A stretch of DNA of 27,228 nucleotides from Bacteroidales bacterium (GCA_038250985.1 JBBSBT010000001.1:1-27228), one strand, 5' to 3'. Positions 790 to 27,228 are shown, counted from the stretch's first letter. The notes: generated by a model not told the origin, from the letters alone. A program made the numbers and translations.

Positions 790-913
790 GCATAACAGCA
801 CCTACAAGAAATTGGCAGTTCAGTGGTTAAATAAAACTTTGTGCTTCGTATCAAGTTTTTGTGATGGCAGACAGTTTAGTGCTTTGAAATCGCCAGCTCC
901 CGAACATTTGGGC
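790..913 (+). repeat. Eroded attC-like cassette repeat
   Basis: Starts GCATAAC 5 nt after the stop; shares sub-motifs with the intact sites in this window (ggcagttcagtg vs ggcggttcagcg at ~18658, aaatcgcca at ~18731, gcagacagtt at ~23279). Right arm is shortened and the GTT appears as ATT (906-908). Confidence 0.55.
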
Positions 914-2093: not shown

Positions 2094-2211
2094 GCATAAC
2101 ATATAGTGTAAATGAAATTTTTAAAAAAGGCGGCTTTGAATGGTTAACGAACATTTCTACTTCTATCAAACAATGGTGCGTAATTTAAGAGTTAGATTAT
2201 ACGCGTTGTGA
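2094..2211 (+). repeat. Strongly eroded attC-like repeat
   Basis: GCATAAC at 2094-2100 shortly after the stop, internal ggcgg...tggttaa motif like the 790 site, GTTGTGA at 2205-2211 before the next gene; arms pair poorly. Confidence 0.35.
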
Positions 2212-12945: not shown

Positions 12946-13589
12946 GATTACTCCACATTACAATGTACTTGTCCTTGATGCGCGCTATAAGCTGCCACGA
13001 CACATGCACTCAAACGTGTCTGTCTTGAATCGCCCTTTTAAAAAAGAGTGAATGCGGCGTAAATGATGGAAGACTTTGAATATATAATGAGGATCTCCGT
13101 CTCCAGATCCGAAAGATTGAAATCAACAGATGATTTTGTCGAAGGGACATCGCTCACTGCTTCGACGAAAGAATGATCGGGATTATGAAATGATTTAGTT
13201 TACTTTCCTTGTTTTGCTATCCAAGCTCTATTTCAATATGTCATGACGGCACATTAAGATAAATCGTCTACTGTTGAAGTCATCATGATTGAATTTTTGT
13301 CGTAAACTTGTGCTTCTATAGCTATACGCAGGAGCGGATGCGGACGTCACATTGAATGAATCCAATTCCTGTAACAATTCCTCCTCCTGATGGGCAAGGA
13401 TTAATGGCAGCAAAATGTGCCCTAAATCCAAAGGATGATCATTCAAACGAACAGAATTAAAATAAAAAATGTGGAGACCAGACACCACAAAAAAAAAACG
13501 TGGCGTAAACCGAAAAGCCATACGACCAGGATTAAAATAATTGCCAGGATATGTTTACTAAATTCAATTTGACAGACAGGTTGCTATTT

Positions 13590-13699
13590 GTAGCGGCTAT
13601 GGCTTCGTGTTCTTCGCTGGCATTTTTGTGGTTAATCAAACATTGGTTCTCCGCAGAGAACCTCGGGGTGATATTCCTCGGGCTGACTCAATTAGGCGT
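13590..13699 (+). repeat. Eroded attC-like repeat upstream of the AraC cassette
   Basis: 13625-13655 matches 18684-18714 of the intact site at 27/31 nt; ends ATTAGGCGT (13691-13699), like GTTAGGCG at 23321. Confidence 0.6.
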
Positions 13700-13767
13700 A
13701 ATACTCAGACCGACCGTACCAACAATAACCGCAAACAAAATAGTAACTTTGGATTTTAAATTAAACT

Positions 13768-14631
13768 ATGGCGGACGGGATAAAAAAACTAAAATTTAAG
13801 CAAAATGCACCTATTCAAATTGAAGTCGTTCCTTTAGACAGTTTGACCAAAGTCAACAAACCGCATTTAATAACGCCACATCGTACCAATTTTTACCATG
13901 TTTTTCTCTTTGATAATTGCCGACCGACACACTACATCGATTTTGAAAAAATAAAAATTCAACCTTATACTTTATTGTTCATTGACAAAGATCGGGTACA
14001 TCAGTTTGACAAATTGCTCAACTATGAAGGACGGATACTCATTTTTACAGACGACTTTTTCCCGGACACTAAATTTTTACGTAGTTCTATATTGTTCAAT
14101 GACCTTTCACATCAAGCGACTATTAAACTAAATCAACAATCTTTAAAACGATTTATTTCGATTTGTGATAATATTACAGAAGAGTTGAGTATGCCAAATG
14201 ATGAGACAAAACCAATTGTACTCAAAAATCATTTACACAATTTTTTATTGTTAGCTGAAAGGGAAAAACGGAAACATGGTTTTGGAGATGCAAAAAAAGG
14301 TGCTGATCTTGACTATACTTTGCTATTCCGTGATTTATTAGAAGCTAATTTCACAAAACTGAAAGCTGTAAATGACTATTCTTCTCAACTTTTTATTTCA
14401 GAAAAGCGATTAGGACAGGCAACTTCAAAAATTTTAGGAAAAACGCCCAAAGAAATCATCAACGAAAGAATATTGCTGGAAGCTAAACGTCTTTTAGTCT
14501 ACAGCCATCTTACAATTAAAGAGATTGGACAAGATTTAGGCTTTGAAGACCCTGCTTAATTTGTACGCTACTTCAAAAAAAACATCGAAACTACGCCCGT
14601 AGAATTTCGACAAAAATACCTATCAAAATAA
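13768..14631 (+). pseudogene. AraC-family regulator with a premature stop in the second HTH
   Basis: Typical AraC C-terminus ...IGQDLGFEDPA*FVRYFKK...TPVEFRQK; TAA at 14557-14559 where Tyr is expected, frame continues to TAA 14629-14631. Own -7 box TAACTTTG at 13744-13751. Confidence 0.8.
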
Positions 14632-16450: not shown

Positions 16451-16482
16451 ACGTCTAGCAGCGGTTTGGCAAAAGTGGCGGT
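16451..16482 (+). repeat. Left arm only of an attC-like site
   Basis: ctagcagcggtttggcaaaagtggcggt matches the left arm at 18638 (ctaacaggcatttggcaaaagcggcggt) and is then abruptly replaced by the WG-remnant element. Confidence 0.65.
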
Positions 16483-16483
16483 C

Positions 16484-16747
16484 GTTGATCAAAAGATAAC
16501 CCATGACGAAGTCCCGAAAGAACAAAACGATTGAGAAAAGCAGATGGTTACATTTTCATTTGTGACCAACTACAGCCGTTACCGGATTACGGGCTGTGTC
16601 TCATCAGGAAAACCCGGCATCGGATTTATTGAATTTAGAAAAAACGTGAATCTCTTTTCCCTCATGGGTACAAATGGCTACTCCGGGTTTTGTGACGGCG
16701 AGGGCCATATTTTTCTACCTAAGGAATGTGGGTGCATACAGGAGTAA
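16484..16747 (+). pseudogene. WG-repeat protein 3' remnant, copy 1
   Basis: NGYSGFCDGEGHIFLPKEC resembles the WG repeat (GxxGFIDxxGxxxIP); homologous to 21133-21432. Confidence 0.5.
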
Positions 16748-16878
16748 GGTGGTATGATCCAAATTAAATTTGAAAAAAATTGTTGCACCTGAAGATCTCT
16801 TCCTCTTGCAGCAATCCACCTCAGACGTCCATAATTTGAGTATATTTCGGGGACTGCAGGTGCAGGTATAAACTAGTT
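16610..16878 (+). repeat. Three-copy attI-like element, copy 1
   Basis: Aligns end to end with 21295-21562; core 16803-16872 then 3 nt then GTT 16876-16878. Confidence 0.85.
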
Positions 16879-16934
16879 AGCTACAAGCGTAAAAACGACC
16901 CTGTGAATTTGAACAGAAATATATAACAATAGAA

Positions 16935-18614
16935 ATGCGACATATTTTAAAATTTATTTTCTTTCTTCCGACAGCTTTTACCGCATCGGCTCAACAAACA
17001 AAACTTGCTGACAGTATTTATTCTATTCAAGACAGCATTTGCATTCCGACTAAAAGCGGAGTAAATATTTCCGCTATCATTGTTCGAAAAAAAGCAAATA
17101 TTCAACCTTTACCAGTTATTCTTTTCTACACGACTTACTATCAAGGCGCAGGTGACGACATTCTTGGGAAAAAGTCTGCAGATAGAGATTATGTTGGCGT
17201 AGTGGCTTATGCTCGTGGCATTCGGACAAATCTAAAAGATTATGCACCATACGAACATGAAGGAAATGATATTTACGATATTATTGATTGGATAAGTAAA
17301 CAGACATGGTGCAATGGAAAAGTTGCAATGTATGGTGGGAGTTATACAGGTTTTTCGCAGTGGGCAACGGCTAAATATTTGCACCCAGCATTGAAAACTA
17401 TTGTTCCGCAGGTAGCGGTGATGCCAGGATTTGACGCACCAATGGAAAACAACGTTCCTTATGGAAGTATTTTAAGTTGGGCTAACGACAATATTTATAA
17501 AAACAAACCTTATAATAGAGGTTTGGTTTTTGATTGGTTTGAAAAAGGCACTTCTTTTCGTAGTTTGGATAGCTTGGGCGGGCAACCAAATCCCATTTTT
17601 CAAAAGTGGCTTAACCACCCAGCTTATGATAATTATTGGCAATCATTAGTGCCAACACCAAATGAATATGCAAAAATCAATATTCCAATTTTAACAACAA
17701 CGGGCTACTATGACGGTTCGCAAATTGGAGCAATTCAGTATTTCAAATTGCATACTAAATACAACAAAAAGGGAAATCATTATTTTGTTATTGGACCTTA
17801 TGACCATTGGGGCGGACAAAGAAAAGCATCGCCAAACTTAATGGGCTACGACATTGACAGTGTTGCGAATATTAGTATGGAAAACTTGGCTTTTCAGTGG
17901 ATAGATTGGATTTTAAAAGACGGCAAAAAGCCCGACTTACTAAAAGGCAAAGTGAATTATGAAGTGATGGGAACTAACAAATGGAAACACACTGCTTCTT
18001 TAGACAAAATGAATAATGACACTTTGAAATTTTATCTAAACAACAATTTTACTCTTGATGATAAAAAGCCAATTGACAACCAATTTGTAAAGCAGACACT
18101 AGACTTTAAGGACAGAGAAACCCAAAACAATTATTTTACACCAACAATTGTTTTTGACACGTTAGATGCCAGTAATGGTTTGGTTTTTACGACTAAGCCA
18201 TTTGACAAGGAGTTTTCAATTAATGGTTCGTTTACTGGTAATTTGTATGCAACCATCAACAAAAAAGATATGGACGTTTCGATGGCTTTATACGAATTGA
18301 TGCCAAACGGTAAATATTTTTTTCTAACCCGTTACATTGGTCGTGCCAGTTACGCCAAAGACAATAGTAAAAGACAATTACTAAAACCTAACCAAAAAGA
18401 ATTTATTCCATTTACGAATACACGTCTTATCAGCAAGAAAATCAGCAAGGGGAGTAAATTGGCAATACTTTTAAATATCAACAAGCATCCATTTGAAATT
18501 ATAAATTATGGTTCAGGCAAAGACCCCAATGACGAAACAATTAATGATGCGAATGAGCCCTTGCAAATTAAGTGGCACAACGACAGTTTTATTAAAATCC
18601 CAATATGGAAATAA
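16935..18614 (+). CDS. CocE/NonD (peptidase S15-like) serine hydrolase, secreted; gene cassette
   Basis: Signal peptide ending SAQ, GKVAMYGGSYTG nucleophile elbow, GYYD and GPYDH, C-terminal jelly-roll region. Confidence 0.9.
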   Translation: MRHILKFIFFLPTAFTASAQQTKLADSIYSIQDSICIPTKSGVNISAIIVRKKANIQPLPVILFYTTYYQGAGDDILGKKSADRDYVGVVAYARGIRTNLKDYAPYEHEGNDIYDIIDWISKQTWCNGKVAMYGGSYTGFSQWATAKYLHPALKTIVPQVAVMPGFDAPMENNVPYGSILSWANDNIYKNKPYNRGLVFDWFEKGTSFRSLDSLGGQPNPIFQKWLNHPAYDNYWQSLVPTPNEYAKINIPILTTTGYYDGSQIGAIQYFKLHTKYNKKGNHYFVIGPYDHWGGQRKASPNLMGYDIDSVANISMENLAFQWIDWILKDGKKPDLLKGKVNYEVMGTNKWKHTASLDKMNNDTLKFYLNNNFTLDDKKPIDNQFVKQTLDFKDRETQNNYFTPTIVFDTLDASNGLVFTTKPFDKEFSINGSFTGNLYATINKKDMDVSMALYELMPNGKYFFLTRYIGRASYAKDNSKRQLLKPNQKEFIPFTNTRLISKKISKGSKLAILLNINKHPFEIINYGSGKDPNDETINDANEPLQIKWHNDSFIKIPIWK

Positions 18615-18634
18615 CTACTTAGAACAACGCCAGC

Positions 18635-18766
18635 AGCTAACAGGCATTTGGCAAAAGCGGCGGTTCAGCGCTCAGTAGACACCTTTGTGGTTAATCACAA
18701 TTTGGTTCTTCGCATCAACATTGGTGCTAAAAATCGCCACCTTCGCCAAGATGCAAACCGTTAGCC
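18635..18766 (+). repeat. Intact attC-like site (132 bp)
   Basis: AGCTAAC-aggcatttggcaaaagcggcg ... cgccaccttcgccaagatgcaaacc-GTTAGCC imperfect inverted repeat 20 nt after the stop. Confidence 0.85.
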
Positions 18767-18973
18767 CTACACGAAGTTGTAAACGAATACGGTAACGTCG
18801 CCGCCTCACCAATGCGATCTCTAGTCAAATGGATCGGGCGATATGGTTGTCTGTTCTACGATAACCAAAAACCGTCATTGAAACAACCCAAACCAGGGAT
18901 ATCACGTATCATTGTTATCCTTAGTTATTTTAGGACTACCACCCACTCACCTTCCCTTACTTAAAAAAGAAAA

Positions 18974-21100
18974 ATGAAATCTCTATTTATCACCCTCATG
19001 ATCCTTTGTTATGCCTCTGCAATGATGGCTCAACATGTTGAAGTGGCTGGCCAAATGCGTATTGACAACATGGATAAAGTCAATTCAGCAGACAGCGTCG
19101 TGGTGCGGCTTGCCGATGGCACACTGGCTGTCAGGGATGTCTCTTCGCTGACAAAAGAAACCGGTTGGACCCTTGTGGCGGATACAACATCAACAACAAA
19201 AATGGTAGGCATCGGGACTTCCTCTCCCAGTGCACCACTGCATCTCGTGGGCAACCAGCGAATTGAAGGACGCCTGGAGATCCTCAAAGCCATTGGTGAT
19301 TCTTCTGTCTTTATCGGGATTAATGCGGGCATGAATGACCTGGGCGGCAATGAGAATACGTTTGTCGGCCATGATGCAGGCAGGTACAACACCACTGGAT
19401 ATTACAACACCGGTGTTGGCGTAGCTGCCCTGCAAAATAATAGCACAGGAACTCAAAACACCGCAATCGGAGCAGGCGCCCTTTGGTACAACACTACAGG
19501 ATACAATAATACCGCAACCGGAACAGGCGCCCTTTTAGCCAACACTACAGGATCCGCAAACACCGCAACCGGAGTAGGCACCCTTGAGTATAACATCACA
19601 GGATATAATAACACCGCCAATGGTAACTTAGCACTTTATAACAACACATCCGGGTTCAACAATACAGCAACAGGAAAATTCACTCTTCTAAACAACACCA
19701 CAGGATATGGCAATACTGCAATAGGAGAAGCTGCCCTTTTTTCGGACACCACGGGATACTACAATACCGCAACCGGATTCAATGCACTTTATAACAATAC
19801 CACGGGATATGTAAACACTGCGATTGGAACCGGTTCACTTCAATCCAACACCACTGGAATTGCAAACACAGCAAGTGGAATTAATGCACTTGTTTTGAAC
19901 ACTACAGGAAATTATAACACAGCCAATGGATCAGCTGCGCTTTACGCCAACACCACAGGCAGGTCCAATGTAGGTATAGGTACGTTTGCATTATTCCAAA
20001 ATACGGATCGAAATAATCTTGTGGCTGTGGGGGATTCAGCGCTTTATCATAACGGCTTTGGCGCAACAGAAACTTACCATGCCATATCAAATACAGCGTT
20101 AGGGTCAAAAGCACTATACGCCAACACGACAGGATATCGCAACACCGCGGCAGGAAGCCGGGCCCTCAATGCAAACACAGAGGGATTCCACAACACGGCT
20201 TTCGGAAGCCAAGCCCTTTACGCCAATACGACAGGCTATCAAAACACAGCTACCGGCCTCTGGGTACTTTATAATTCCACGACAGGAAATGAAAATACAG
20301 GTACAGGAGCCGGGGCCCTTTTCGCTAACACCGAAGGCAATCTGAATACGGCAGTTGGAAGTGGAGCGCTATATGCCAATACAACGGGGTCAGAGAATAC
20401 GGCTACCGGAGGATATGCACTCTTTAATGATACGACCGGAATAGAAAACACAGCCCACGGATTTCATTCGCTTTATAACAACTCCTCAGGAAATCGAAAT
20501 ACCGCCATAGGCGATAGTTCGCTCTGGTCCAACGCTACCGGAACCGGTAACACAGGTCTGGGAAATGGCGCCGATGTTGCATCCGATAACCTAATCAATG
20601 CCACAGCTATTGGATACAAAGCAATGGTCGATGCCTCCAATAAAGTAAGAATTGGGAATGAAAATGTAACGGTCATCGAAGGACAGGTTCCATTCACGTC
20701 TTCTTCCGACCGGCGTTTGAAAGAAGATATTGTCCCTGTACGGCTTGGACTGGACTTTGTCAATGATCTGAACCCCGTACAATATCATCGCATCAACAAT
20801 CCAGATCCGGATCTGGAAATGGGCATTATTGCCCAGGACTTATTGACAGCTTTGGAGCTTCATGATGCAAAACAATCGGGGATGGTGAATCATAACGGGG
20901 ATGGGTATATGTCGGTGCGTTATAATGATTTGATCGCGCCCATGATAAAATCGATGCAGGAACTCAGTGATGAAAATGACAAGCTCAAAGCTGATCTTGA
21001 TTACTGTAAAACCAAATTGAAAAGATTGGACGATATAGAATCTGAACTTGCGCAGGTGAAAGCACTGTTGACTCCGGCAAGTTCAGTGGGTTCTGATTGA
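18974..21100 (+). CDS. Secreted fibre-like repeat protein with a C-terminal peptidase S74 intramolecular chaperone domain
   Basis: Signal peptide ending MAQ; about 24 units of a 17-aa xNTTGxxNTAxGxxALx repeat; SSDRRLKEDI...GLDFVNDLNPVQY S74 motif; C-terminal coiled coil. Confidence 0.85.
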   Translation: MKSLFITLMILCYASAMMAQHVEVAGQMRIDNMDKVNSADSVVVRLADGTLAVRDVSSLTKETGWTLVADTTSTTKMVGIGTSSPSAPLHLVGNQRIEGRLEILKAIGDSSVFIGINAGMNDLGGNENTFVGHDAGRYNTTGYYNTGVGVAALQNNSTGTQNTAIGAGALWYNTTGYNNTATGTGALLANTTGSANTATGVGTLEYNITGYNNTANGNLALYNNTSGFNNTATGKFTLLNNTTGYGNTAIGEAALFSDTTGYYNTATGFNALYNNTTGYVNTAIGTGSLQSNTTGIANTASGINALVLNTTGNYNTANGSAALYANTTGRSNVGIGTFALFQNTDRNNLVAVGDSALYHNGFGATETYHAISNTALGSKALYANTTGYRNTAAGSRALNANTEGFHNTAFGSQALYANTTGYQNTATGLWVLYNSTTGNENTGTGAGALFANTEGNLNTAVGSGALYANTTGSENTATGGYALFNDTTGIENTAHGFHSLYNNSSGNRNTAIGDSSLWSNATGTGNTGLGNGADVASDNLINATAIGYKAMVDASNKVRIGNENVTVIEGQVPFTSSSDRRLKEDIVPVRLGLDFVNDLNPVQYHRINNPDPDLEMGIIAQDLLTALELHDAKQSGMVNHNGDGYMSVRYNDLIAPMIKSMQELSDENDKLKADLDYCKTKLKRLDDIESELAQVKALLTPASSVGSD

Positions 21101-21132
21101 CTCACTGAACTAAAAGTCAAAATGGAAGTTGA

Positions 21133-21432
21133 ATTCTAAGTTCAGCATGCCGTTTAATTCTTGAGTGTGTCTACACAAAACTAACGGCGCTCCTTTCAGA
21201 CTTCGATGACGATGAGAAGGATGACAAATTCTATGTCGTGATCTCAGACTATAGCATCTCGGGATTGATGAACATGAACGGAAAGGTTCTCTTTAACCCT
21301 GGCTTCGGATTTATTGAATTTTGAAAAAACGTGAATCTGTTTTCTCTCATGGGTCCAAATGGCTACTCCGGATTTTGTGACGGAGAAGGCCATATCTTTC
21401 TACCTAAGGAATGCGTATGTATTCAAGAGTAA
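21133..21432 (+). pseudogene. WG-repeat protein 3' remnant, copy 2
   Basis: SGLMNMNGKVLFNP and NGYSGFCDGEGHIFLP WG-like units; in-frame TGA at 21322-21324 where copy 1 has AGA; no start codon for the upstream part. Confidence 0.55.
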
Positions 21433-21562
21433 TTTGGTGTGCTCCAAATGAAGTTTGAAGAATATTTTTGAACCTGGAGATTTCTTACTCTTGCAGCAAT
21501 CCACCTCAGAAGTTCATAATTTGAGTATATTTCGGGACTGCAGGTGCAGGTATAAACGAGTT
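21295..21562 (+). repeat. Three-copy attI-like element, copy 2
   Basis: Core 21488-21556, then 3 nt, then GTT 21560-21562. Confidence 0.85.
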
Positions 21563-21643
21563 GTGTGTCAGCTTGATTGACACTTTCATTAATCGGGTAC
21601 TCCATTAACTTTATAAACTAAATTGTTCACATTCAAAAAAAAA

Positions 21644-23092
21644 ATGAAAATACTTCATCTCTCTATTTTATCGCTATTATTCGGGTGCGAATGCATGGCA
21701 CAAAAAAGTGCGCTTGATAAAACACTAAATCCTTTAAAAAATGAAGCGGCAAATTATCTTCAATCCAATTACGGAAAGTATAAAACAATTGCAGTAAGCA
21801 TTTGGGATTATGCTGAAGCTGGTTTTAAAGAAAATAAAAGTTCATTATTATTACAAAATACGCTAAAGGAAAATGGATTTAATGTGGAAGCTGGTGTTGC
21901 CGGTATGCCTACCGCATTCGTAGCAACTTACGGAACCGGGAAGCCCGTAATAGGGATACTTGCTGAGTTTGATGCACTGCCTGGCTTTTCGCAAGACAGT
22001 TCTTACACTAAAACACCTATAGCTAATAAAAGTAATGGTCATGCCTGCGGGCATAATTTATTTGGAACAGGTTCTGTTGCTTCGGGTATAGCGATTAAAA
22101 AATTAATAGAAGAAGGCAAAATTATAGGCACTATAAAAGTATATGGATGCCCTGCAGAAGAAGGTGGTGATGGAAAAGTGTATATGGTAAGGGAAGGTTT
22201 ATTTAATAATGTAGATGTAGTTTTGCATTGGCATCCGGATGAACATAATGCTGTTACTTATACAAGTTCTTTGGCTATTAAAACTGCTAAGTTTAGATTT
22301 TACGGTATCTCTGCTCATGCTGCGGCTGCTCCTGACAAAGGACGCTCAGCTTTAGATGCTGTTGAGAGCATGGATTATATGGTAAATATGATGCGTGAGC
22401 ATATTCCACAGGAATCACGTATTCATTATGTAATTACTAATGGAGGAAAAGCCCCAAATGTTGTTCCTGACTTTTCAGAAGTTTTTTACTATGTAAGAAA
22501 TCCTGATAGAGCCATGGTAGACAGCTTATTTAAAAGAGTGGTAAAAGCTGCTGAAGGTGCTGCTTTGGGTACGGAAACAAAAATGGAATATGAAATTATC
22601 AGTGGCTCGCATGACTTACTAATTAATAAAACACTAGCTGATGTTATGCAAGCTAATTTAGAGAAAGTGGGTGGAGTAACTTATACTGCTGATGAAGTAA
22701 AATTTGGCAAACAGCTTCAGACAACATTTTTGGGCAATGTATCTTCCTTAGATTCTGCAGCTTTTGTAAAGCCATTACATTATGAAAAAAATCAAGGGTC
22801 AACTGATGTTGGTGATGTAAGCTATACAGTACCAACTGTTGGATTAGAAGCTGCAACGTGGGTACCAGGTACCTCAGCACATAGCTGGCAGGCGGTTGCC
22901 TGCGGCGGCAATGATATTGGCATGAAAGGAATGATGGTCGCTGCCAAAACAATTGCATATACCGCTATTGACCTATTTTTAAATCCTGCACTTATTATCA
23001 AAGCAAAAGAGGAGTTTAAGAAAATGAAAGGCGACTATCAATACAAGGCATTATTAGGTGACAGAAAGCCTGCATTAAATTATAGGGATTGA
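21644..23092 (+). CDS. M20-family amidohydrolase (AbgB-like), with signal peptide; gene cassette
   Basis: LAEFDALPG, GHACGHN, GCPAEEG, HWHP, GSTDVGDVS, HSWQ motifs; ATG 21644 after an A tract. Confidence 0.9.
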   Translation: MKILHLSILSLLFGCECMAQKSALDKTLNPLKNEAANYLQSNYGKYKTIAVSIWDYAEAGFKENKSSLLLQNTLKENGFNVEAGVAGMPTAFVATYGTGKPVIGILAEFDALPGFSQDSSYTKTPIANKSNGHACGHNLFGTGSVASGIAIKKLIEEGKIIGTIKVYGCPAEEGGDGKVYMVREGLFNNVDVVLHWHPDEHNAVTYTSSLAIKTAKFRFYGISAHAAAAPDKGRSALDAVESMDYMVNMMREHIPQESRIHYVITNGGKAPNVVPDFSEVFYYVRNPDRAMVDSLFKRVVKAAEGAALGTETKMEYEIISGSHDLLINKTLADVMQANLEKVGGVTYTADEVKFGKQLQTTFLGNVSSLDSAAFVKPLHYEKNQGSTDVGDVSYTVPTVGLEAATWVPGTSAHSWQAVACGGNDIGMKGMMVAAKTIAYTAIDLFLNPALIIKAKEEFKKMKGDYQYKALLGDRKPALNYRD

Positions 23093-23128
23093 CTTATCTC
23101 TTTTTATACATTATACACTAAAGCCGAA

Positions 23129-23327
23129 CACACAACAAAAGTATTGCTGCAATTGGGGCTTGACGGAAGAACATTCATCAGCTGTACATATCCAAGCTTT
23201 GGTTTCGGCGGACGGAATTCTGTTGAGCTTTTGTAGGTTAACTTCGGCTTTTGTTTATTAATTTAGCTTCAGTTCCGGGCAGACAGTTGGTCAATTCCCC
23301 AACTGCAGCAATACTCGAACGTTAGGC
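23129..23327 (+). repeat. Intact long attC-like site (about 199 bp)
   Basis: CACACAAC 23129-23136; arms agtattgctgcaattgggg (23140-23158) and ccccaactgcagcaatact (23297-23315) are complementary at 18/19; GTTAGGC 23321-23327. Confidence 0.85.
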
Positions 23328-23589: not shown

Positions 23590-23799
23590 AGACCAGGAAT
23601 ACCACGCAATAATGTATTCCCAATTGTTCGAACAACCATTCAGATCCGCTGGTTTATAAAGATGCGGTGTTCGATAGTGTTGCAGGACAAGAAGTATGCA
23701 CTTGCAGAAAATTATTTCGCTTGTTGGTTTTATCAACGATGACTCTGTCTAGGCAACAAAAGTGTGATGTATCACAGGAAAGTCTTAACTTCACAGAGA

Positions 23800-24024
23800 A
23801 TGAAAACAATTAAAGAGCTTACGCCAATTATAGAGCGAGAAGGCGATGGTTATGTCGCGCTTTGTGCTGAACTTGATGTAGCAAGCCAAGGTGATACCAT
23901 TGAGGAAGCCCGCTCAAATCTCATTGAAGCTCTTGAACTTTTCTATGAAACAGCTTCAGAAGAAGAGATATCAAGAAGATTTCATGAAGAAGTGCTGATC
24001 ACTCGTGTCCAGGTGGCTATATAA
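23800..24024 (+). CDS. hicB: HicB-family antitoxin (short form)
   Basis: IIEREGDGYVALCAELDVASQGDTIEEARSNLIEALELF signature. Confidence 0.85.
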   Translation: MKTIKELTPIIEREGDGYVALCAELDVASQGDTIEEARSNLIEALELFYETASEEEISRRFHEEVLITRVQVAI

Positions 24025-24206
24025 TGAAACCCCTATCCGGGAAAGAAGTTTGTTTGATTTTAATGAAGCATGGTTTCATTCAAATATGACAGCGCGGAAG
24101 TCATATCATCATGCAAAAACAAATATAAGGTTCCACTACGACTATTCCTGTTCCAAATCATAAGGAATTGCGAACAGGAACACTGGGCTCAATAATGAGA
24201 AAATAA
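24024..24206 (+). pseudogene. hicA: HicA-family toxin pseudogene
   Basis: TAATG coupling to hicB; MKPLSGKEVCLILMKHGFIQI*QRGSHIIMQKQI*GSTTTIPVPNHKELRTGTLGSIMRK*; stops at 24087 and 24126; GSH and VP.H.EL..GTL motifs retained. Confidence 0.85.
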
Positions 24207-26855: not shown

Positions 26856-27090
26856 GCTGAACGAAAGTAAACGAATGACGAAGCCCCGAAAGAGTAAATC
26901 GATTAAGAAGTGGGCCATATTTTTCTACATATAAAATGCGAGTGCATTCAGGAGTATGACACGGTGAACCAAATGAAGTTTGAAGATAATTTTTTTTGCA
27001 CCGGGAGATTTCTTCCTCTTGCAGCAATCCACCTCAGAAGTCCATAATTTGAGTATATTTCGGGACTGCAGGCGCAGGTATAAATAAGTT
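26856..27090 (+). repeat. Three-copy attI-like element, copy 3 (internally deleted)
   Basis: 26875-26909 matches 16503-16537 (30/35); 26912 onward matches 16702 onward; core 27016-27084, 3 nt, GTT 27088-27090. Confidence 0.85.
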
Positions 27091-27132
27091 AGTGGCAATA
27101 AAAGATTTTCGTCCTTTGGAAATTATATATCA

Positions 27133-27228
27133 ATGCATTACAGTTTACGTTTGACTATATTGCTCTATTCGTGCTTTGGCTGTCTCACAAGTAGTAAGAC
27201 GGCAAAATATCAGATTGGTGGCACAAAT
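27133..27228 (+). CDS. 5' end of a probable secreted or lipoprotein cassette gene, runs off the window
   Basis: ATG 27133 open to the window end: MHYSLRLTILLYSCFGCLTSSKTAKYQIGGTN; 42 nt after the GTT of copy 3. Confidence 0.45.
   Translation, partial: MHYSLRLTILLYSCFGCLTSSKTAKYQIGGTN

Follow-up and report, generated by a model that had tools for sequence, protein, structure and literature searches.

Background

The cassettes of class 1 integrons and of the Vibrio chromosomal integrons carry one gene per unit on a single strand and have RYYYAAC...GTTRRRY ends with an imperfect internal inverted repeat. They are joined at a G/TT crossover, have a start that is complementary to their own R'' box and a hybrid R' box, and stand in arrays that include toxin-antitoxin (TA) and defence genes and in which conserved, genus-typical attC sites are accompanied by foreign attC on imported cassettes. 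The same features are found in a stretch of 27,228 nt from a Bacteroidales bacterium (GCA_038250985.1 JBBSBT010000001.1:1-27228), referred to here in its full length as the window. Two of its units, 16877-18760 with a CocE/S15 hydrolase gene and the site attC1 and 21561-23321 with an M20 amidohydrolase gene and the site attC2, are very probably integron-type cassettes in a decayed, integrase-less array. Unlike those of class 1 and Vibrio integrons, the attC of the window family are about 132 nt long, with a further class of 165-200 nt, and have no obvious extrahelical bases. The window cargoes are 1.8-kb genes for predicted-secreted hydrolases, no canonical IntI was found, and the upstream partner of the cassettes is not an attC.

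Clustered attC without an integrase (CALIN), as recognized by IntegronFinder, are thought to be degraded integrons (PMC9024848), and the window resembles them in having attC without a nearby integrase and signs of decay. Insertions at attG (10.1101/2022.09.11.507474) and cassettes ending in delta-attI (PMC12901181) have, like the window cassettes, a G/TT joint to a partner that does not fold as an attC. Insertions of the attG type can use resident promoters for their expression and can be cut out again (10.1101/2022.09.11.507474). The window partner differs in that there are three copies of it, each followed by its own unit, in that it is unlike the attI of the 547-aa recombinase family described below, and in being known from sequence only. 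Few integrons have been reported in Bacteroidetes proper (PMC9024848). In the Treponema integrons intI is transcribed toward the cassettes (PMC3607928), and the 547-aa recombinase of Bacteroidota is likewise co-oriented with its array. The Treponema enzymes are described as integron integrases, whereas in the Bacteroidota enzyme the IntI-specific insert is missing and the N-terminus is extended by about 270 aa. The element is of a known kind; the variant in this lineage is unusual in its attC family, its probable non-canonical integrase and its non-attC acceptor.

Cassette ends

In the established integron model, each of the two cassettes would once have been circular, and its attC hairpin would have recombined between the G and the TT of R'. 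The first bases of the linear cassette after insertion would be the old R' box, so that the cassette start stays complementary to the cassette's own R'', and the R' now at the 3' end would be a hybrid with the next unit. The decayed array also carries TA modules, defence genes and eroded attC sites. The predicted circular units are 1884 nt (CocE) and 1761 nt (M20) in length. A preliminary description of the window had read the cassette ends as a footprint of recombination at G/TT. Context breaks and end complementarity both support that reading, with the circular form as the presumed intermediate.

The complementary words given in that description, GTTAGCT (16876) with AGCTAAC (18635) in the CocE cassette and GTTGTGTGT (21560) with ACACACAAC (23128) in the M20 cassette, were located at these positions, and AGCTAAC and both M20 words occur only once in the window. 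Read by eye, the complementarity extends to 11 of 14 bases in the first cassette and to about 14 of 16, with one bulged base, in the second. Both R'' words are at a hairpin base 20-35 nt past a stop codon, and the inverse core (..YAAC) and core (GTT....) boxes are present at the ends of attC1 and attC2, 3' of and co-oriented with an open reading frame (ORF). Complementarity to the R'' is poorer for the in situ R' boxes (6/7 in attC1 and 4/7 in attC2) than for the cassette starts, as expected if the present R' is a hybrid. Both cargoes had been called large secreted hydrolases; Pfam matches to the S15 and M20 families agree with this, and both N-termini look like signal peptides, which suggests secretion. 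The coordinates are collected in Table 1.

Random pairings of R'' and R' among 24 attC sites of the family, all from other Bacteroidota genomes, are complementary at 7/7 in 26 of 576 cases (4.5%), a rate due to the commonness of GTTAGC-type boxes, and in only one of the 24 does the in situ R' fully match its own R''. The equal frequency in randomly paired sites that would have undermined the preliminary description was thus not seen. Any 9-mer complement 300-3000 nt downstream was found for only 4 of the 332 GTT sites in the window. Outside the window, for 15 out of 15 recombinase-proximal first cassettes, the stretch from the recombinase stop codon to the first attC contains the 9-mer complement of the first R'' a single time.

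Table 1. Positions of the proposed cassettes, attC sites, repeat copies and adjoining units in the window
Feature	Position	Strand	Details
Eroded attC	790..912	+	Model R1 53.3 bits, E 1e-9
Possible attC loop remnant, marginal	2132..2205	+	Model R1 11.6 bits, E 0.59, loop positions only
attC left arm only	16451..16482	+	R'' degraded to GTCTAGC; 27/28 bases identical to the L034 attC left arm
Repeat copy 1	16486..16878	+	WG-gene remnant, stop 16745-16747; 130-nt tail ending ...GGTATAAACTA/GTT
Cassette 1 start, G/TTAGCT	16876..16882	+	7/7 complementary to 18635-18641; BLAST homology start in two unrelated contigs
Cargo 1, CocE/NonD (peptidase S15) hydrolase, 559 aa	16935..18614	+	Pfam PF02129, PF08530
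attC1, 132 nt	18635..18766	+	R'' AGCTAAC 18635-18641; R' GTTAGCC 18760-18766
Next unit after cassette 1	18760..21185	+	708-aa repeat protein, peptidase S74 chaperone domain
Repeat copy 2	21190..21562	+	Longer WG remnant, in-frame TGA; tail ...AAACGA/GTT; 88% to copy 1 over 269 nt
Cassette 2 start, G/TTGTGTGT	21560..21568	+	9/9 complementary to 23128-23136; repeat homology stops at AGTT
Cargo 2, M20 amidohydrolase (AbgB-like), 482 aa	21644..23092	+	Pfam PF01546, PF07687; homologs 482 aa long
attC2, long class, 198 nt (23130-23327)	23128..23327 with R'' word ACACACAAC	+	Box ACACAAC; R' GTTAGGC 23321-23327
Repeat copy 3	26858..27090	+	WG part internally deleted; tail ...AAATAA/GTT; 83% over ~180 nt
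Start of third unit (GTTAGTGGCAA...)	27088..27228	+	ORF from 27133, lipoprotein-like N-terminus, runs past contig end

Recurrence of the cassettes in other contexts

On L028, L029-33 and L034, which are unrelated contexts, the CocE unit is found at 87-90% nucleotide identity. In the first two the BLAST alignment begins at GTT 16876, and in L034 it begins 9 nt upstream, at 16867; boundaries lying away from the GTT, the other outcome that would have spoken against the preliminary description, were not encountered. The flanks upstream of the unit are unrelated across all three contexts when compared by eye, and in two of them consist of the right arm of another attC. On the right, L034 has a near-identical attC after the CocE unit and diverges past GTTAGC, and a copy of attC2 in L028 likewise breaks at GTT(A) of R'. 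Logan contigs of three sediment metagenome runs have an attC1-like site that exits after 18762/18763 into three different sequences. The depth of the attC1-like sequence in these runs is 40-100x that of its flanks, which shows that the site is a repeat common in these communities.

The CocE cargo is an accessory gene: a search of 44 genus mates gave no match at E<=1e-40. Relatives in other metagenomes have 84-92% amino-acid identity. One cluster member at >=90% amino-acid identity is in a metagenome-assembled genome (MAG) labelled Aquaticitalea, a flavobacterium, and the cassette may thus have crossed between orders, subject to binning error.

For the M20 cassette, the right end and the end complementarity are solid. 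The first 61 bases of the unrelated contig L028 (L028:1-61) match attC2 at 57 of 61 positions and then diverge past GTTA into a different cassette. The R'' region GCCGAACACACAA is kept 3' of the M20 gene on L039 and L163, with the remainder of the attC missing or decayed. Similarly, the CocE gene of L028 retains the R'' AGCTAAC and is followed by a different attC body (L028:5025-5225, compared with window 18635-18766). In these cases (L028 for CocE, L039 and L163 for M20) the breakpoint is at or near AA/C of R'', which could reflect exchange at R'' through top-strand events or repeated decay. A third M20 context is seen in L035:4934-6600 and L036, where a GC-rich hairpin element (GACCCCC...GGGGGA) is present on both sides; this may be another repeat type or another recombination site.

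The attC family

Hairpins of the form AAC...GTT were gathered by an ad hoc scan, and 24 of these from 14 loci of other Bacteroidota genomes were aligned and used to build a covariance model (R1), with the window sites and the relatives of the cassettes left out. RNAalifold on the 24 sites gives a 16-bp stem with compensatory changes at all 16 predicted pairs. A check with such a custom model had been proposed in the preliminary description; attC1 matches R1 over its full length at 70.9 bits (E 2e-13) and is a member of the family. The lengths fall tightly around 132 nt, with the second class at 165-200 nt. The site attC2 is of the longer class and is matched in part only, at 23186-23327 (15.4 bits, E 0.09). 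Its architecture matches that of six attC sites of this class in L028, which stand in an unbroken chain with 7/7 end complementarity in 6/6. The attC2 stem (23140-23158 / 23297-23315) is a 19-nt inverted repeat that is 95% complementary, the single mismatch being A.C on the top strand and G.T on the bottom strand. A scan of the window with Rfam did not report an attC-type match.

Of 33 family sites, 28 fold more stably on the bottom strand (mean -2.0 kcal/mol), and attC1 folds at -22.1 kcal/mol on the bottom strand vs -17.8 kcal/mol on the top strand. The reverse attC orientation, prompted by the asymmetry of the spacer on the 3' side, was rejected because the homology breaks fall at the GTT of the + strand. 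Family attC were found in 43 out of 45 genomes of the genus.

The recombinase

The window is the entire contig C1 of its own MAG (G000), which has 701 contigs and is 82% complete, and an integron platform could therefore lie off the contig end. The earlier claim that there is no integrase stands for this contig and this MAG, in searches with IntI and with the 547-aa recombinase, and holds only for these given the completeness of the MAG. No remnant of either enzyme was found in the window. The best match to the 547-aa recombinase in the same genome is a 339-aa ORF on C229 with 38% identity, in the catalytic core only.

A canonical IntI is most likely not the cognate enzyme, which would rather be the 547-aa IntI/Xer-like recombinase that is carried by genus mates and heads co-oriented arrays of this attC family across Bacteroidota. 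The top family match of this protein is the integron integrase model, at 207 bits, which is below the cut-off. It does not have model positions ~180-235, a gap that coincides with the IntI-specific domain in an alignment to true IntI. In a survey of tyrosine recombinases, the insert is described as "not fully conserved" in the integron-like subgroup (PMC8138268). The literature searched did not yield an account in which the 547-aa recombinase is an integron integrase.

The attC family is linked to this recombinase. Across 80 loci of the gene (655 kb, both strands) there are 52 model sites, 52/52 on the strand of the gene and 51/52 downstream of it. Representative Bacteroidota genomes, including those of the cultured Arundinibacter, Arcicella and Solitalea, contain at least 227 relatives of the recombinase. 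Examples of recombinase-headed attC arrays, among loci L056-L135, are L056:6001-7641 (G005), L083 of Arundinibacter roseus and L100 of Arcicella aurantiaca. In the complete genome G005 the first cassette begins 170 nt past the recombinase stop codon and has 10/10 end complementarity. This genome has a second attC array at C1:2607836-2627537 (-), downstream of a second recombinase copy at C1:2627923-2629307 (-) that was matched as two separate pieces, residues 1-164 and 330-545. At a canonical IntI locus in the same order (G060), the hairpin scan found no array of window-type attC alongside.

The recombinase was found at E<=1e-30 in only 14 out of 36 genus mates. The complete genome G027 of the same genus has 23 attC sites and only a 178-aa fragment of the recombinase. 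With attC being near-universal, arrays without an integrase are thus a genuine state of the genus.

The repeat upstream of the cassettes

A 270-nt element is present three times in the window at 83-88% identity and precedes both cassettes and the unit at 27088. Its two parts are what is left of the 3' end of a WG-repeat gene and a tail of 130 nt that ends ...GGTATAAA(C/T)NA/GTT. Copy 3 shares a 52-nt upstream segment with copy 1. An R''-like AACTAAC (21179-21185), the right arm of which is absent, abuts copy 2 directly. Contigs from the source run contain extra tail variants with other upstream sequence (loose ends at 16764 and 16776).

The tail was considered as an attI of the 547-aa recombinase family and rejected. 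A hidden Markov model (HMM) and a position weight matrix (PWM) were derived from 12 recombinase-proximal junctions, the hallmark of which is left and right ATATA.ACGC-type boxes with 4-6 nt before G/TT; in leave-one-out scoring, true sites score 8-16 in 10 of the 12. The HMM gave no match to the tails, and their PWM scores of 2.5, 0.3 and -3.1 rank 37, 80 and 223 among 907 GTT sites. Outside the window, exact-pattern scans for the repeat core in metagenome and genome collections found none, and a DNA search of 60 relatives and 300 genomes of the order gave only chance A-rich matches.

Conflicting evidence and alternative explanations

Several observations weigh against the interpretation of the two units as integron-type cassettes. 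The neighbouring units break the complementarity chain, with GTTAGCC vs AACTAAC at 5/7, and GCCTAAC is absent from the whole window. The attC consensus has no clear extrahelical bases, only A.C (G.T on the bottom strand) and A.A mismatches and a spacer of 3 vs 4-5 nt, and over its whole length attC2 folds slightly better on the top strand (-28.5 kcal/mol vs -25.8 kcal/mol on the bottom). The upstream partner is not an attC: the repeat tails have fold z-scores of ~0 on both strands, no partner arm and no match to R1, and were rejected as attC. Neither the contig nor the MAG yielded a canonical IntI, the best match to TIGR02249 being 79.9 bits vs a cut-off of 265, and an ortholog of the 547-aa recombinase was not found in the 82%-complete MAG. 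Excision or circle joints were not seen in Logan contigs of four runs, although contigs cannot show their absence.

Further such points concern the M20 cassette. An independent left boundary was not found in four contigs and 80 JGI loci, a search that yielded solely a 30-nt match to the M20 R'' region in L163. The closest M20 relatives (82-89% nucleotide identity) share coding DNA only, or at most 21578 to 23131/23135, and the left end is therefore bounded only to within 18 nt. Two M20 relatives adjoin yebC in ordinary chromosomal settings without an attC (L037:574-2022 and L038:1194-2642), and are 88-89% identical in DNA to window 21644-23092. The gene thus occurs in two forms, as part of the ordinary chromosome and as a cassette.

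It is exceedingly improbable that the end complementarity is due to chance and that the hairpins are repetitive extragenic palindromic (REP)-like elements or terminators unrelated to site-specific recombination. GTTAGC-type words are indeed common, as the random 7/7 rate within the family illustrates, and a 7-mer complement is found 0.3-3 kb downstream of 20% of GTT sites. Chance does not account for homology that stops at GTT on two of the contexts and no more than 9 nt away on the third, for the 9/9 match of cassette 2, for the unique 9-mer matches next to the recombinase and the unbroken chain in L028, for covariation at every stem pair, or for the strict strand and position of the sites relative to the recombinase gene. 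That the lack of an integrase is an artefact of assembly, with the array belonging to a complete integron whose recombinase and attI lie beyond base 1 or in the unassembled 18%, is possible although rather doubtful. The window being a whole contig of a fragmented MAG is consistent with this, as is the position of the recombinase, which in genus mates and across Bacteroidota is upstream of and co-oriented with the arrays. Many contigs break 0.1-2 kb after the recombinase gene, and CALINs are overcounted in draft genomes (PMC9024848). The frequency of attC without the recombinase among genus mates, and the complete genome G027 with only a fragment of the gene, argue against it. In addition, the window array is heavily eroded, with truncated attC and pseudogenes that fit long inactivity, and the attC matches of its own genome are scattered, singly or paired, over 7 contigs.

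As regards the upstream repeat, it may be a working double-stranded acceptor or a fossil. It is quite possible, if short of probable, that the repeat is a functional acceptor of the attI, delta-attI or attG type, each copy of which captured its own cassette and perhaps supplied a promoter. The three copies have a constant 3' end exactly at AGTT, a different predicted-secreted-enzyme unit after each and variable 5' extents, and every copy lacks a hairpin and a partner arm. Minimal GWT sites can serve IntI as insertion points for cassettes, which are expressible and excisable there (10.1101/2022.09.11.507474), and functional cassettes are known that end in delta-attI rather than attC (PMC12901181). 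However, the tails are unlike the attI of the 547-aa family by both HMM and PWM, the sequences 3' of attC1 and attC2 have no homology that would serve as the right half of a common target, and the searches made found no copy outside the window contig. The repeat would otherwise be the fossil 3' end of an ordinary cassette, made up of the WG-repeat gene and an attC, that was duplicated and lost the left arm of its attC, the junctions then being relics of attC x attC or attI x attC recombination. Cassette duplication is common in chromosomal arrays. The element opens with a gene remnant whose full-length relatives are proteins of 363-400 aa (WG repeats in 3/4), and other attC sites in the array are truncated. 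This origin is nonetheless unlikely: no copy has an attC model match, even a partial one, and all three agree on a sequence without an inverted repeat, so that their common ancestor would already have been without the hairpin, yet three different units follow.

Eroded sites and other window content

Four eroded attC sites had been listed in the preliminary description, with mixed outcome. The site at 790 is confirmed by R1; its left arm and loop are intact, the right arm has lost 9 nt and the GTT is now ATT. At 16451 the claim holds in part, as only a left arm is present. The site at 2094 is marginal (E 0.6), and that at 13590 was not detected. In the window, neither 13590 nor 16451 nor the repeat tails are matched by R1. 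The sole support for 13590 as an attC was a 31-nt similarity to the attC1 loop, and the position is inside an 82-aa ORF; this candidate was rejected. The ORF (13551-13799) is hydrophobic, has no Pfam match and is just 3' of a match to the DUF805 RNA motif at 13466-13536 on the + strand (Rfam, 63.3 bits, E 1.3e-9).

Intact attC with a left arm of the 16451 type are abundant in Logan contigs of the source metagenomes. Joints of 16482 to 18708 were therefore rejected as evidence of excision, these joints being other intact attC that share the left arm of the eroded site.

The window had been described as a CALIN-type array. It has two intact sites and one strongly eroded site with no integrase found, and is a CALIN in the sense of at least two clustered attC without an integrase, within the limits set by the contig ends. 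The default clustering distance of IntegronFinder is 4 kb. The intact sites attC1 and attC2 are separated by 4363 nt, just above this distance, in which the window differs from a standard CALIN.

Almost all genes of the window are on the + strand, a type IIG restriction-modification gene being on the - strand. Defence and TA functions are represented by ParD, ParD/ParE modules, a Fic protein, RhuM, a PLD nuclease and a T5orf172 nuclease. The window further holds three large predicted-secreted enzymes, and a type 9 secretion sorting domain, indicative of Bacteroidota, was found on one protein. At 23764-24200 there is an ORF for a HicB-like antitoxin (weak Pfam match), followed by an apparent HicA toxin gene with in-frame stop codons. 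The initial 11 nt of the third unit are identical to a cassette start of L028 and to that of the first cassette of L116. Elsewhere in the same MAG there are eight additional attC matches, on C48, C276, C160, C71, C203 and C339. The attC on C48 is near-identical to the genus-typical attC of G015.

Conclusions

The cassette footprint is in itself textbook integron biology, and bears out that cassettes can be delimited from sequence alone. Arrays of this attC family occur in nearly all genomes of this Bacteroidales genus and widely across the phylum, despite the few integrons that have been reported (PMC9024848), and in Bacteroidota they follow a recombinase that fails the accepted definition of IntI. 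As a tentative and rather uncertain proposal, the window cassettes would belong to a Bacteroidota-wide integron variant in which the 547-aa recombinase without the IntI-specific insert is the integrase, and in which the repeat is a working double-stranded acceptor for capture, and perhaps expression, at several sites of the array.

If the 547-aa enzyme is the integrase, what the IntI-specific domain does and what CALIN denotes would have to be rethought for this phylum. Many Bacteroidota CALINs may have an integrase that is not recognized by the IntI definition of the tool. Standard screens would then label these arrays as integrase-less, and the missing insert is one held to be essential for attC recombination. 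Near-identical M20 genes present as chromosomal neighbours of yebC and as cassettes provide material for the question of cassette origin. Cassettes carrying 1.8-kb genes for predicted-secreted hydrolases may, binning error being possible, move between orders of Bacteroidota.

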